Virus record (IMG/VR): IMGVR_UViG_3300049043_000133
Location: 1-64,000 of that record
Strand: one strand, 5' to 3'
DNA from: a virus
DNA: 64,000 nt
The stretch's first letter is position 1. Each line of letters starts with the position of its first letter. The notes under the pieces are model-generated. The model was not told the DNA's origin. It worked only from the letters and a program-made list of their open reading frames with translations, and made no database searches. A program made the translations under genes and the position numbers. Below are positions 21,630 through 53,398 of this stretch, piece by piece.

Positions 21630-21740
21630 CGACTGCCCTAGGGCGCAGTACAATACTCTCATAGGCAACAGGGGTCCAAACTCTGTGTAAGTCCTGCCCC
21701 TCCCATGCCTCTCATAGAAGCACAAACAGGGAGGTCTCTT

Positions 21741-21814
21741 GGGGCAGCAGCATGACGGATCATGCACCATCCTTCTAAGATGTAAGATCGGGGGTTCAAA
21801 TCCCTCCTGCCCTG
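21741..21814 (+). tRNA. tRNA-Arg(UCU)
   Basis: Cloverleaf; anticodon loop cttctaa; ggttcaaatcc T-arm. Confidence 0.85.
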
Positions 21815-21818
21815 CCTT

Positions 21819-21900
21819 GTCGTTGTGGCGGAATTGGTAGACGCGCTGGGTTTAGGTTCCAGTAGAGTATTCTGTGAAGGTTCAAGTCCTTTCAACGACA
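21819..21900 (+). tRNA. tRNA-Leu(UAG)
   Basis: gtcgttg/caacgac acceptor; tttaggt loop; variable arm. Confidence 0.9.
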
Positions 21901-21903
21901 TTG

Positions 21904-21977
21904 GGGAGATTAGTCCAGTTGGTTAGAGTGCACGACTGATAATCGTGAGGTGCCTGGTTCGAGTCCAGGATTTCCCA
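21904..21977 (+). tRNA. tRNA-Ile(GAU)
   Basis: ctgataa loop; ggttcgagtcc. Confidence 0.9.
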
Positions 21978-22017
21978 CTTGACAATTAAATCTTTATGGT
22001 TTATGATTGTCTCATAA

Positions 22018-22089
22018 GCGGAGTTAGTTCAGCGGTAGAACGCTATCCTTCCAAGTTAGATGTCGTCGGTTCGATTCCGATACTCCGCT
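22018..22089 (+). tRNA. tRNA-Gly(UCC)
   Basis: gcggagt/actccgc acceptor; cttccaa loop. Confidence 0.9.
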
Positions 22090-22205
22090 TACCTCTGGTA
22101 GTTCTTAAGGCATCGATAAGGTAGCTGGATACTCTTCGTGATTCAACAGAGTGTGAGAGAAAAAGTGATCATCGGTTCCGTCGACAAGAGCTGCCTTATC
22201 CTTAT

Positions 22206-22277
22206 TCCCCTGTAGCTCAACAGGCAGAGCACGGAGCTGTTAACTCTGGGGTTACAAGTTCGAATCCTGTGGGGGAG
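22206..22277 (+). tRNA. tRNA-Asn(GUU)
   Basis: ctgttaa loop; gttcgaatcc; 3' arm has errors. Confidence 0.8.
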
Positions 22278-22346
22278 TTACCGCATCCGATGCAGTATAA
22301 TCGCAGTAAAGTGTTTATCTGCAGTTGACTGACTCACTACCCACTT

Positions 22347-22416
22347 GGGAGCATAGCACAGAGGTAGCGCGGATGCCTTACAAGATCAGGTCACTGGTTC
22401 GATCCCAGTATTCCCA
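22347..22416 (+). tRNA. tRNA-Val(UAC)
   Basis: cttacaa loop; ggttcgatccc. Confidence 0.75.
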
Positions 22417-22445
22417 CTTACATAAATACCTAAAAAACTGCTATA

Positions 22446-22890
22446 ATGGAAAAACTGTTTAAACTGCTGAAGTGATGCTCAGGCAACACTTTTTGTTTTA
22501 TTTCAGAAAACTTGGATTTATCACTGGGATGTAGTTGGTCCTGATTTTCACCAACTTCACACAGTCTTTGGTGAGCAATACAATCAAATGTTTGAAGAGA
22601 TTGACACTCTCACCGAACATATGAGATACTTGGGTATGAAACCTGTAAGCACTCTTACAAGAATTACAGAAGTCACTCAAATAGAACAGGCATCAAATAG
22701 TGCTCAGGACATTGATGCAATGGAAATGGTAAAGCAACTGAGAGATGACAATCAAAAGATTGTAGAAATCTTTACTGATATTTCAGAAGAAGCAGATCAA
22801 CAAAAACAATTTGCAACTTCTAATTTGGTTCAAACTATTATGGAAACTCACGGGAAGTTTCACTGGATGTTAAGATCGTTTTTAGAATGA
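22446..22890 (+). CDS. dps: Dps/ferritin-like DNA-protection protein (frameshift ~22470)
   Basis: YHWDVVGPDFHQLH..F.EQY...IDTLTEH ferroxidase motif; KFHWML. Confidence 0.85.
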
Positions 22891-22905
22891 TACGGATGAA
22901 AGACA

Positions 22906-23151
22906 ATGATTATCGTAAGATGTAGAGATTGCAATAAAGAAATTGCAAGCACAAATAAAACTCAAGTTTGCGGTTGTTCAAATATGATGACCGTAAGAGG
23001 AGATAATGTATCTGCTGTTGACTTAAGTAGAGTTGTTATGGTAAACTCTACTCAGAAAGAACAAAAGAACGTTCTAACATCACAAGATATTGCCTGGCAA
23101 GAGGCAAGACGCCAACGCAAAGTAAAGCGTTTGGACTTTGAAGTCCGTTGA
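22906..23151 (+). CDS. Small Cys-rich conserved cyanophage protein
   Basis: CRDC...CGCSN; C-terminal RRQRKVKRLDFEVR. Confidence 0.65.
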   Translation: MIIVRCRDCNKEIASTNKTQVCGCSNMMTVRGDNVSAVDLSRVVMVNSTQKEQKNVLTSQDIAWQEARRQRKVKRLDFEVR

Positions 23152-23161
23152 GGACTTGGTT

Positions 23162-23248
23162 GGAGAGACAATCCGATTGGTGACGGAACCGCTCTTGAAA
23201 AGCGTTGAGGTGTTAAAGCCCTTAGGCGTTCGACTCGCCTTCTCTCCG
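23162..23248 (+). tRNA. tRNA-Ser(UGA)
   Basis: cttgaaa loop, long variable arm, gttcgactc. Confidence 0.9.
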
Positions 23249-23347
23249 TTTAATTTAATATTTTCTTAATCACTTTCTTGAAATCAACACAATTGTTGTT
23301 GATTAAAAATATGTAATTAGTATATATTAGTAATATGCATAAATCCC

Positions 23348-23497
23348 ATGGATCAACACACTTATGATAACTGGGTGAAAATTAAAGCAACTTTTGAAGC
23401 ATCTGGTAATACTAATAATATGTTTTATAAGAGAGCGTGTGAAATTGTAAAAACAAAAAGAGATCCTCTCGCAAAGTATCTTGGAGATGAGAAATGA
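23348..23497 (+). CDS. Small hypothetical protein
   Basis: MDQHTYDNWVKIKATFEASGNTNNMFYKRA... Confidence 0.6.
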   Translation: MDQHTYDNWVKIKATFEASGNTNNMFYKRACEIVKTKRDPLAKYLGDEK

Positions 23498-23676
23498 TGC
23501 ACGAACAGGATGAACTTGTAAGTCGTTCTGAAGTTCAGGAAATGATCAAACAATCTATTTCAACTGCAATTAAAAATCATGAGATTCGTGTGGGATGGAT
23601 TAGTGGAATTATCGGAGCATTTTTTGTTTTTGGCATTATTCATTCAATATGGTTAATGAAGAATTTGATTCGGTAA
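23494..23676 (+). CDS. Small membrane protein
   Basis: One C-terminal TM helix; coupled to the upstream stop. Confidence 0.55.
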   Translation: MMHEQDELVSRSEVQEMIKQSISTAIKNHEIRVGWISGIIGAFFVFGIIHSIWLMKNLIR

Positions 23677-23677
23677 A

Positions 23678-23965
23678 ATGGAAATTTTTTATTTCATTCC
23701 TTTTATTATTTTATTACTGATTGCAGCATCTATGGTAATACAGGGTTGGATGGTCGTTCACGAATCGCACGGGTATCGTGAAAATCCAAAGGTTAAAGGT
23801 CATCCAGAAATGAAAGGAGTTAAAAAAGGAGACGGACTTATGGTCGTAAATTTCGATAACATGCCAAATGATGATTATAATGAACTATATAATCGTATTC
23901 AAAAATTAAAAATGGAAGAATTATTTGAAGAACCCTCTAAGTACGAAGATGAAGAAAATGACTAA
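23678..23965 (+). CDS. Membrane protein, DUF2973-like
   Basis: N-terminal TM; HPEM...G..L.VV.F motif. Confidence 0.55.
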   Translation: MEIFYFIPFIILLLIAASMVIQGWMVVHESHGYRENPKVKGHPEMKGVKKGDGLMVVNFDNMPNDDYNELYNRIQKLKMEELFEEPSKYEDEEND

Positions 23966-24162
23966 AGTATTCATATCAACAATTTTGCTTCTTGGTTCAA
24001 TTGGATTGTTTATAATCTGGGGTGTTTCGCACGCATATCCACAATGATTTTTCACATCGTAGAAGCACTTGCATCAAGTCCAATCTGGTTGGGACTTTGC
24101 GGAGCAGGCTTGACAGTCGTTCCAATCCTGGGTATAATGCTTATACATTCAAAAAACAACAA

Positions 24163-24235
24163 CGGGGTGTAAGTCAGCGGTAGACGGCTTGCTTTGGGAG
24201 CAAGAAGACACTGGTTCGAATCCCAGTCACCCCGA
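24163..24235 (+). tRNA. tRNA-Pro(UGG)
   Basis: cggggtg/caccccg acceptor; tttggga loop. Confidence 0.9.
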
Positions 24236-25415: not shown

Positions 25416-25820
25416 AATAGTCACGGAGAGACTTAAAAAGTACTGGTCGGGAGCAAACCCCTAATGTCTAAAGCAAGTATCTTAAGATATCTTGGCAACC
25501 TTCTCCTCATTATTGGTTATCAAACTATGCTATGGGGAGATTTTAAATATGGTTTATTGGTTAAATGTGTTGGGGGATTACTCACAGTACCTTTTGCTAT
25601 TAAACTTAAACTCTGGGATGTATTATTCCTATGTGCTTTCTTTGGTATTTCCGAGATATCAAAGGTTGTACAACTTTTCCTAGTTCAGTCAAACTAGGTG
25701 GTGGATCCAATGACCCCCTTATGTCCTCGTCGGATTGGACATTAAATATGCCGACTGGTGTGGATGGGGAAACTCCCGCCTGGTTTCCAATTTCCAGTCA
25801 AAGAATTGGTGGCGTGCATG
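25416..25820 (+). ncRNA. manA/wcaG-like modular structured RNA, interrupted by an ORF
   Basis: Repeated tttc-stem-gtggyg modules and tggtgtggatgggg..cccgcc; upstream of a nucleotide-sugar epimerase, as for the cyanophage manA/wcaG motifs. Confidence 0.6.
25464..25697 (+). CDS. Small three-TM membrane protein
   Basis: 77 aa hydrophobic ORF. Confidence 0.65.
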   Translation: MSKASILRYLGNLLLIIGYQTMLWGDFKYGLLVKCVGGLLTVPFAIKLKLWDVLFLCAFFGISEISKVVQLFLVQSN

Positions 25821-25894
25821 AAAGACCTGATGAGAGGAGTTGCATAAACTCCTCTTTTTTGTATAATACATACTATAGACATATTCATTAATCT

Positions 25895-46957: not shown

Positions 46958-47069
46958 CGTGGGAAAGCAATTTTAAGTATTTATTGTGATTGAGACGTTT
47001 TGCCTATTGACAGGATTTCCTGACAATGCTATGATAAATAAATCTTAAGAAATGTAACGTTTCTTAATC

Positions 47070-47180
47070 CTCTACCTAACCGAGACCTATGGGGAGGTTA
47101 AACACAGTCTCTCATATCCACAGTGGAGGGTGCTGTGGAGTATAATGTATTACCAGTTCCCTGCTGGATTTACTTACCCT
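47070..47180 (+). ncRNA. PhotoRC-II-like structured leader of psbA
   Basis: accgagacc...gtctctcat, ccacag/ctgtgg and ccag/ctgg stems directly before psbA. Confidence 0.6.
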
Positions 47181-47190
47181 TTAACGAAAA

Positions 47191-50056
<2,866 letters not shown>

Positions 50057-52301: not shown

Positions 52302-52628
52302 ATGGGCAAGCATTATCTACTTAACTTATATGGATGTTCATTCGTTCTTTTAAATGACGAACGATGTCTTGTAGATTTATTAGAAAATGCAGCAGTTGCA
52401 TCGGGCGCAACTGTAGTTCAAACAATTTGGAAGAAGTTTGAACCACAAGGAGTTACTGTAATGTGTCTATTGTCGGAAAGTCATATTAGCATTCATACTT
52501 GGCCTGAAGAAGGGAAAGCAGCCGTAGATGTTTATACTTGCGGAGACTGTAATCCAAAGATTGGATGTGATATAATTATTCAACAACTTTATGCATCCAG
52601 CCATACATTAAGTTATATCGAGCGTTGA
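52302..52628 (+). CDS. speD: S-adenosylmethionine decarboxylase proenzyme
   Basis: GKH, F.PQGVT, LSESHISIHTWPE, DVYTCG. Confidence 0.93.
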   Translation: MGKHYLLNLYGCSFVLLNDERCLVDLLENAAVASGATVVQTIWKKFEPQGVTVMCLLSESHISIHTWPEEGKAAVDVYTCGDCNPKIGCDIIIQQLYASSHTLSYIER

Positions 52629-52697
52629 TATAATTGTATCAGGAAATACACACAAACTTGACTATATAGAATGACTAGGGGTATAATAATCCCCTAA

Positions 52698-53007
52698 CGT
52701 TCATCCTATGACTAAAGCACTTTTGCTTTTGGCATGGGTTCCACTTCTTTCTTTTTCTACGCCGCAACTTACCAAACTTAATAATCAAGTGACGATAAGT
52801 TGTGATGTAGCTTGGGAACTAATGGACATCGTTAAAAACGACGATGTAGTAGATCAAAGAAGAGAAGACCGATTGCTATTAGAACTCCGAAAGGATGTTA
52901 TAAAACTTAAGTGCTAAAACTGAATAGGACGGAAGTAAGCCGACTCGGAACGGATCGTTCATTCGCTATTTGCAAATAGCGAACGCAAAAGTTGACTGAA
53001 GGAACGC
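52698..53007 (+). ncRNA. Tandem glutamine riboswitch (glnA/Downstream-peptide-type) aptamers; the first contains an ORF
   Basis: cgttca-tcctat...atagga-cggaagtaag..ggaacg, then atcgttca-ttcgctat/atagcgaa-cgcaaaag..gaaggaacgc; upstream of a YRG peptide gene. Confidence 0.75.
52708..52917 (+). CDS. Small secreted/lipoprotein-like protein nested in a riboswitch stem
   Basis: 69 aa with hydrophobic N-terminus and two Cys. Confidence 0.6.
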   Translation: MTKALLLLAWVPLLSFSTPQLTKLNNQVTISCDVAWELMDIVKNDDVVDQRREDRLLLELRKDVIKLKC

Positions 53008-53041
53008 CACCTCACCCTAAACAAGTAAAGGAGCAAACCGA

Positions 53042-53173
53042 ATGACAACAGCAACGTATCGTGGTGTTAAATATAACGTCGAAGATCGTAAAATCAACGT
53101 TCTTCAACTTATCAAAGATCAAATTGAAAAAGAACAACGTCGTAAAGCGGCACAACTAGCATCACTTAGATGA
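53042..53173 (+). CDS. DUF4278-family peptide (43 aa)
   Basis: MTTATYRGVKYN...; aaggag RBS; terminator at 53180-53207. Confidence 0.8.
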   Translation: MTTATYRGVKYNVEDRKINVLQLIKDQIEKEQRRKAAQLASLR

Positions 53174-53239
53174 TACTTAGAGAGGGACTTGACTCCCTCT
53201 CTTTTTTGTCTATAATTACCTTTGTTGAGGTTGATAAAA

Positions 53240-53398
53240 ATGGATAAAGAAAAACTTAAGCTTATTGTAAAAAATCTTGAATCTTTAGTGAACTGTTTAA
53301 AATCAGAAGTTTATTCTGATACTTCCTCATATAAGTATGAAGAAATTGCTCCATATATAAATGATTACGACGAAGTATTTTATGAAGATGATGACTGA
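53240..53398 (+). CDS. Conserved cyanophage hypothetical protein
   Basis: MDKEKLKLIVKNLESLV..LKSEVYSD. Confidence 0.65.
   Translation: MDKEKLKLIVKNLESLVNCLKSEVYSDTSSYKYEEIAPYINDYDEVFYEDDD

Follow-up and report, generated by a model that had tools for sequence, protein, structure and literature searches.

Riboswitch aptamers are regarded as compact non-coding domains. When glutamine levels rise, glutamine riboswitches bring about increased translation of gifB/DUF4278 genes (PMC6212724). The ligand is bound in the groove of the CGUUC/GAACG helix (equivalent to P1 below), which it stabilizes; the stem-loop next to this helix needs no ligand to form and can be exchanged with binding retained, and an aptamer made of two pieces assembles on addition of glutamine (PMC6698751). 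A survey of tandem riboswitches counted 157 glutamine doublets and nowhere mentions aptamers that bear genes (PMC9481103), and no paper found in our full-text literature search describes a riboswitch aptamer with a gene inside it. Here we describe such an arrangement in a 64,000-nucleotide (nt) stretch of viral DNA (“the window”; positions 1 to 64,000 of IMG/VR record IMGVR_UViG_3300049043_000133), which is part of a 92.7-kb contig of a T4-like cyanomyovirus. Two glutamine aptamers stand there in tandem, and stem P2 of the first encloses an open reading frame (ORF) of 69 codons, designated ORF A. The gene-in-aptamer layout is real and conserved, and it is a variant of a known riboswitch class. 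We think it reasonably probable that the locus is a tandem glutamine riboswitch in which a working split aptamer 1 closes its P1 and P2 stems around a translated gene.

The 5′ half of aptamer 1 (52698-52709, plus strand, as are all features of the locus) consists of CGTTC (52698-52702), A at 52703 and TCCTAT (52704-52709), and is identical to the 5′ halves of the intact aptamers of DSL-LC02 and S-PM2. ORF A (52708-52917, 69 amino acids) begins with an ATG at 52708-52710 that overlaps the 5′ arm of P2, occupies the loop of that stem, and ends with a stop codon 6 nt 5′ of the 3′ arm. The 3′ half (52924-52952) opens with ATAGGA (52924-52929), followed by the CGGAAGTAAG core and by GGAACG at 52947-52952, of which GAACG (52948-52952) is the 3′ strand of P1; the conserved core within this half reads CGGAAGTAAGCCGACTC. 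P1 is formed by five standard pairs between 52698-52702 and 52948-52952, and P2 by pairing of 52704-52709 with 52924-52929, with a loop of 212 nt instead of about 4. A 3-nt linker, GAT, joins aptamer 1 to aptamer 2 (52954-53010), an intact glnA-type aptamer that meets the gathering threshold of Rfam RF01739 over the full model (36.7 bits, gathering score 35, model positions 1-53). The tandem thus consists of two aptamers of the same class under one promoter, with one terminator, none between the aptamers, and a single downstream gene. The promoter is of the sigma-70 early type (TTGACT-18 nt-TATAAT, 52658-52687, 11 of 12 matches). The gene, which is expected to be gated by the tandem, encodes a 43-amino acid DUF4278-like (YRGVKY) peptide (53042-53173) behind a Shine-Dalgarno sequence, AAAGGAG, at 53027-53033, and is followed by an intrinsic terminator (53179-53210) with a 9-bp stem (53179-53202) and a T run. 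A sequence-only reading of this DNA had described the promoter, a glnA-type 5′ half holding the ATG of the ORF, a 3′ half just past its stop so that the ORF becomes the P2 loop, and then a second intact aptamer, the YRGVKY peptide and a terminator; each of these was found in its place.

Standard models pass over aptamer 1. Rfam RF01739 gave no match to native 52696-52954 even at E values up to 10, and a Rfam scan of 52600-53250 at the same limit returned aptamer 2 only, with no glutamine-family model matching aptamer 1. This miss is attributable to the 212-nt insert, since a model that permits the insert scores the same segment at 61.3 bits. Training of that covariance model (R1) excluded the window and used an alignment (A2) of aptamer-1 sequences from other contigs, 58 of them intact and 32 split, to which the P1 and P2 pairs were supplied as structure; the model has 47 positions and 10 pairs, and was run with filters off. 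Its top match in the 64 kb, both strands included, was the whole split aptamer (52696-52954; E 8.7e-15, model positions 1-47 of 47), in which 10 of 10 pairs are standard, a match that far exceeds chance. The second match was aptamer 2 with 13.8 bits, and all others scored 10 bits or less. Aptamer 1 of DSL-LC02, given 35.6 bits by RF01739, has the same 3′ half as the window, and the core between P2 and the 3′ strand of P1 (ACGGAAGUA...) is present in aptamer 1. As for P3, there is only a possible 3-bp CCG/CGG element, and Rfam alignments of relatives leave P3 largely unaligned. The type 2 alternative was also considered: the Downstream-peptide model RF01704 had no match in the window, and aptamer 1 of S-PM2 and of P-TIM68 scored 24.6 and 28.8 bits with it against a threshold of 33. 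Linkers vary (GAT, GAA, CAATT, GGTT) while GCCGAC remains unchanged, and no covariation was found for a type-2-like helix or for one joining the aptamers. Judged by P1, P2, core and context, aptamer 1 is to be classed as a type 1 glutamine aptamer with no clear P3.

Two checks suggested by the sequence-only reading bear on the long-range helix: a model search after deletion of ~52711-52920, and an examination of covariation between TCCTAT and ATAGGA in relatives with and without the insert. For the first, a profile was made from 75 unique intact aptamer-1 sequences. Against the undeleted window it matched the 3′ half only (35.5 bits); after removal of 52711-52920 in silico it matched over its full length (48.8 bits, E 3e-14), and full-length scores across the deletion tests ranged from 48.8 to 52.3 bits. 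For the second, all five P2 pairs of alignment A2 change on both sides. In this alignment 95.5% of P2 cells are paired, standard pairs occupy 97.8% of cells versus 84.4% in shuffles, and the covariation score is 0.330 versus 0.079, a value reached by 0 of 500 shuffles. Controls in which the partner was slid by 1 to 3 columns reduced pairing to 29-56%. For 64 unique arm pairs of split aptamers, drawn from aptamer 1 and aptamer 2, contiguous helices averaged 5.75 pairs, versus 3.60 ± 0.20 when arms were re-paired between loci; the observed value was reached by 0 of 2000 shuffles. P2 positions 3-6 show several Watson-Crick types. Note that relatedness inflates the helix statistics, yet the pair types stem from different ORF families and from both aptamers. 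P1 never varies and is therefore uninformative on covariation either way.

These data also bear on whether aptamer 1 might have been broken by insertion, leaving aptamer 2 as the sole glutamine sensor and the 5′ half as a mere leader of ORF A. Such a relic would account for the failure of Rfam to detect aptamer 1 and for the low probability of its P1 in a plain energy model. It is nevertheless very improbable, given that hundreds of contigs preserve both halves letter for letter at a separation of more than 200 nt, that P1 shows no change in any of the 90 aligned sequences while the P2 pairs change on both sides, and that the same design evolved in, or spread to, aptamer 2 as well.

The split layout is not peculiar to one phage; it is widespread, with hundreds of phages sharing it, and occurs in either aptamer or in both. 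A scan of IMG/VR with the 16-mer at the aptamer-aptamer junction returned at least 120 contigs, and 124 phage records matched in a blastn search with a double-nested locus. Tandem loci were classified among the matches listed, phage records and the window included. Of these 124 loci, 42 have both aptamers intact, 41 have only aptamer 2 long, 21 have only aptamer 1 long and 13 have both long, with 7 not classifiable and outside these four classes; at 75 loci, one aptamer or both contain a nested gene. S-PM2, S-CREM1 and P-TIM68 carry the same promoter (in S-PM2 at the same position relative to the tandem), two neighboring aptamers and a DUF4278-type gene; in place of the window's ORF, P2 there is a short hairpin. 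DSL-LC02 and P-SSM2 have a nested gene in aptamer 2, the ORF of the latter being unannotated in NC_006883. Loci picked by the ORF A protein alone gave a full-length R1 match spanning the gene in 70 of 70 cases (43.7-63.1 bits), and 12 of 14 more divergent ORF A loci were likewise nested. A scan of genome contigs for the exact 16-mer junction was uninformative on hosts, 119 of its 120 matches being chance occurrences in unrelated bacteria. The single genuine match, a 3767-base contig (L219) from a metagenome-assembled genome labelled Acetobacteraceae, contains a tandem with both nested ORFs and is almost certainly misbinned cyanophage DNA. At loci L139-L143 (~800-900), the aptamer 1 that bears ORF A is separated from the next CGTTCA by a longer, different linker in place of the customary 3-nt GAT; this linker starts with GGAACGGAATGCC and contains an ATG.

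The nested genes are placed in a consistent manner. In nearly all long aptamers, an ATG 3-7 nt past CGTTCA opens an ORF of 49-69 amino acids, and for 49 of 61 unique arm pairs the best duplex includes two or more bases of the AUG. One family of aptamer-1 ORFs ends at the UAA of CGCAAGUAAG, and the family of ORF A stops 6 nt short of the 3′ arm. ORFs in aptamer 2 almost always enter the core, where they stop at the UGA or UAA of GACU(G/A)AAGG, 7 nt before the end of the aptamer. A Shine-Dalgarno-like motif precedes 0 of 35 aptamer-1 ORFs (ORF A among those without it), 0 of 56 aptamer-2 ORFs and 87 of 87 downstream DUF4278 genes. Among nested ORFs, a Shine-Dalgarno sequence was seen in one case only, in aptamer 2 of locus L036 (~2089-2330); this ORF encodes 63 amino acids with two Cys, its ATG is located further in, and its own AGGAGG is placed directly against the 5′ arm of P2.

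Where aptamer-2 ORFs stop within the core, the stop is ~35-45 nt before the DUF4278 start, and the double-nested phages can be read as three-cistron operons: P-HM2 has PHM2_179 in aptamer 1, PHM2_180 in aptamer 2 and PHM2_181 as the DUF4278 gene, and P-SSM4 has 169.2, 169.3 and 170 in the corresponding positions. These features would suit a positive coupling, in which translation of the nested gene unfolds the leader and supplies the downstream cistron with ribosomes by termination-reinitiation or unmasking, so that the genes are co-expressed and the aptamers set the level of the operon. We consider this decidedly unlikely: the nested gene of the window is in aptamer 1, the intact aptamer 2 intervenes between it and the downstream gene, and that gene has a strong Shine-Dalgarno sequence of its own.

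ORF A behaves as a protein-coding gene. Metagenomes contain 248 homologues of 66-72 amino acids, and the family alignment has 34 invariant columns, including those of the two invariant Cys residues, C32 and C69. In four ORF families, pairwise differences are most frequent at codon position 3, less so at position 1 and least at position 2 (ratios 1.4-1.8), and insertions and deletions occur in threes. Sister nested ORFs belong to phrog_504, phrog_6471 and phrog_13397, three families that do not include ORF A of the window, and relatives are annotated as genes in isolates. An untranslated insert, whether a structured RNA domain or a chance open frame, would fit the lack of a Shine-Dalgarno sequence, of a known protein family (Pfam had no family match to ORF A) and of a confidently predicted fold. 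Against the codon-position bias, the conserved columns and the constant length of the homologues, we hold such an insert to be extremely improbable. Most likely, aptamer 1 and the nested gene are both functional.

The ORF A family is narrow, as a profile search of 1.84 billion representatives returned 9 clusters only; the ESM Atlas returned only the viral cluster of ORF A itself. Its hydrophobic N-terminus looks like a signal peptide, and the nested families share a pattern of hydrophobic N-terminus, Cys, helices and C-terminal Cys. By hhalign, the aptamer-2 ORF families are related to one another (98.7%) and probably also to the CF-type (82.6%), and no significant link was found from the ORF A family to the other nested families. 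A single superfamily of all nested ORFs is therefore unsupported. Searches of isolate phages by tblastn with ORF A and with an ORF B gave no match, the queries being short. Small ORFs beside the intact tandems of S-CREM1, P-SSM4 and DSL-LC02 have no resemblance to nested proteins, and no free-standing copy of phrog_504 was found in S-PM2, S-CREM1, P-TIM68 or the contig of the window (five records checked). Eight stretches of a 765-amino acid protein (P0132) match positions 28-44 of the ORF A profile (E 2e-5) and may represent a repeated Cys-helix motif.

With its start codon inside an aptamer hairpin, translation of ORF A should compete with nitrogen sensing on one RNA. The -10 box ends ~10 nt 5′ of aptamer 1 in the window (at most related loci, a -10-like hexamer ends 7-10 nt before CGTTCA), so the transcript is expected to start within a few bases of P1 and the leader of ORF A to be little more than the 5′ strands of P1 and P2. 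While ORF A is still being transcribed, the AUG would be free and ribosomes could load. Once the 3′ half emerges, P2 and P1 could close, and glutamine in the groove of the CGUUC/GAACG helix would stabilize the closed form and bury the whole initiation region of ORF A. Conversely, a ribosome initiating on the 5′ half, or terminating on the 3′ arm, would keep aptamer 1 open. Aptamer 2 and the platform downstream of it would gate the DUF4278-like gene as an ON switch responding to glutamine, like those of cyanobacteria. Overall, low glutamine would favor ORF A and high glutamine the DUF4278 peptide. Reciprocal glutamine control of the two genes is thus plausible and compatible with the anatomy, from which we infer that ribosome loading and closure of aptamer 1 exclude one another, that the split aptamer binds its ligand, and the direction of regulation.

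Folding calculations agree with a helix across ORF A. The minimum free energy structure of 52693-53060 (-87.5 kcal/mol) contains P2 across ORF A, with an ensemble probability of ~0.2, and the interior of ORF A folds as a long irregular hairpin that brings the two ends together. Forcing P1 and P2 to form costs only 2.9 kcal/mol. The energy model ignores the ligand and tertiary contacts, and the ensemble probabilities given below for P1 and for a junction hairpin should therefore be considered neither to support nor to exclude closure.

Several observations weigh against a working, ligand-controlled aptamer 1 around a translated gene. The ensemble probability of its P1 is ~0.01. A 5-bp junction hairpin, GAACG-GAU-CGUUC (52948-52960), has a probability of ~0.65 and excludes both aptamers; this hairpin is inherent to tandems with short linkers, and is beyond covariation testing because both of its strands are invariant. 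AlphaFold gave ORF A a predicted local distance difference test score (pLDDT) of 57, with two helices at 32-43 and 53-66, a model too poor for a fold search. In three studies, aquatic metatranscriptomes yielded contigs over ORF A and the two halves of aptamer 1, some of which bridge the end of the ORF and the 3′ half, and their summed depth at ORF A and the aptamer halves is far above that of the flanks; they are a weak hint of transcription, as contig depth cannot rank genes and carry-over of DNA is possible. Because the canonical stem-loop forms without ligand, occlusion of the AUG may be only partly, or hardly, ligand dependent. Finally, the two exceptions among the divergent ORF A loci (L330, 401-907, and L331) carry a free-standing homologue at a short distance 5′ of a tandem's promoter. 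Aptamer 1 of that tandem is intact, and a different small gene is nested in aptamer 2. This homologue also has no Shine-Dalgarno sequence, and the protein accordingly needs no nesting, yet it stays at the locus. Such loci may represent an intermediate in evolution or a gene that has escaped from nesting.

Such free-standing homologues speak for the nested gene being a passenger, a small gene that exploits a permissive P2 loop and a strong early promoter while the aptamer serves the downstream gene, with no real mutual control. The stem-loop is replaceable without loss of binding (PMC6698751), at least three unrelated or barely related protein families fill the loop, and the compactness of phage genomes could by itself explain coding sequence in this position. 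We nonetheless regard a passenger as unlikely, although a credible alternative. Whatever the family and whichever the aptamer, the 5′ arm of P2 contains or abuts the start codon (in L036, the Shine-Dalgarno sequence), and stops fall within or next to the 3′ arm or the core. A ribosome at either end of the ORF must open P2, so some coupling is hard to avoid. A split aptamer 1 that works around a translated gene remains our preferred reading. More tentatively, and with less than even confidence, we suggest that one fold shuts off the buried gene and turns on the gene behind it, that translation of the buried gene feeds back on the fold, and that this would be the first known riboswitch class with a gene inside its aptamer, used by many marine and freshwater T4-like cyanophages to read host nitrogen.

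A speD gene (52302-52628) directly precedes the riboswitch locus. The 43-amino acid peptide has the N-terminal YRGVKY motif and matches phrog_545 and phrog_5049; with Pfam PF14105 (DUF4278) it stayed below threshold (E 0.057, 14.2 bits against a gathering score of 25.3, residues 3-20 only). A second promoter-like site, TTGACT-16-TATAAT (53189-53216), overlaps the terminator stem and precedes a small ORF (53222-53398). A group I intron match (RF00028, 50.7 bits, at the gathering score) at 49402-49612 may, we presume, lie in psbA, as in S-PM2. Matches to wcaG RNA (77.2 bits, 25721-25823) and PhotoRC-II RNA (72 bits, 47055-47153) were also obtained; both are known cyanophage cis-regulatory motifs. 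A cluster of transfer RNA (tRNA) genes (21699-24234) is preceded by an abiF-like RNA match (21699-21735, 44.8 bits), and a borderline tRNA-Sec match at 23162-23247 (47.4 bits against 47) is more likely a tRNA with a long arm.

At this locus a conserved protein gene is part of the architecture of an aptamer, with its start codon in a helix required by the sensor. Should the split aptamer bind glutamine, one RNA would have a new route to outputs that are opposed or interlocked. Of the tandem arrays sampled (among the matches listed), about 60% are invisible or singlet-like to the Rfam model, and covariance-model surveys would consequently undercount riboswitches in a systematic manner; we infer that gene-bearing arrays, appearing as singlets or as nothing in standard scans, would be missed by the survey of tandem riboswitches (PMC9481103). 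The layout also ties at least three families of small two-Cys proteins, including PHM2_179/PHM2_180 and PSSM4_169.2/PSSM4_169.3, to nitrogen sensing during infection. Culturable hosts exist for such phages (P-HM2 on MED4; P-SSM4 or P-SSM2 on NATL strains).

Compared with described systems, the locus is closest to the type 1 glutamine riboswitch (RF01739; the Synechocystis gifB/IF17 leader, PMC6212724), with which it shares the CGUUC/GAACG helix, a P2 stem-loop, a ACGGAAGUA-type core, a leader position before a DUF4278-type gene and an expected ON response to glutamine. It differs in that P2 encloses a 212-nt insert that is a gene with its AUG in the helix, in that there is no real P3, and in that the Rfam model is blind to it. 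Tandem, pseudo-cooperative glutamine riboswitches (PMC9481103) similarly place a head-to-tail pair of glnA-type aptamers, separated by 3 nt, in front of a single gene, whereas here a gene is enclosed by one aptamer or by both. Introns of groups I and II that carry ORFs in peripheral loops provide a precedent for a gene in a helix loop of a functional RNA, for a helix spanning hundreds of bases and for possible interference between translation and folding; the present RNA is a ligand sensor rather than a ribozyme, its start codon is in the helix itself, and the nested ORFs are not endonucleases or maturases, with no signature of mobility observed. In leader-peptide attenuation and translation-coupled switches (trp, ermC), the position of a ribosome on a short ORF likewise selects the RNA fold, but the ORF here encodes a conserved protein rather than a sensor peptide, and is located inside a metabolite aptamer rather than before a terminator. 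The two-piece glutamine-II aptamer (PMC6698751) likewise assembles its ligand-binding helix from separated strands with glutamine; whereas that is an engineered bimolecular construct of type 2, the cyanophage RNA is natural and a single molecule, and a gene separates its strands.

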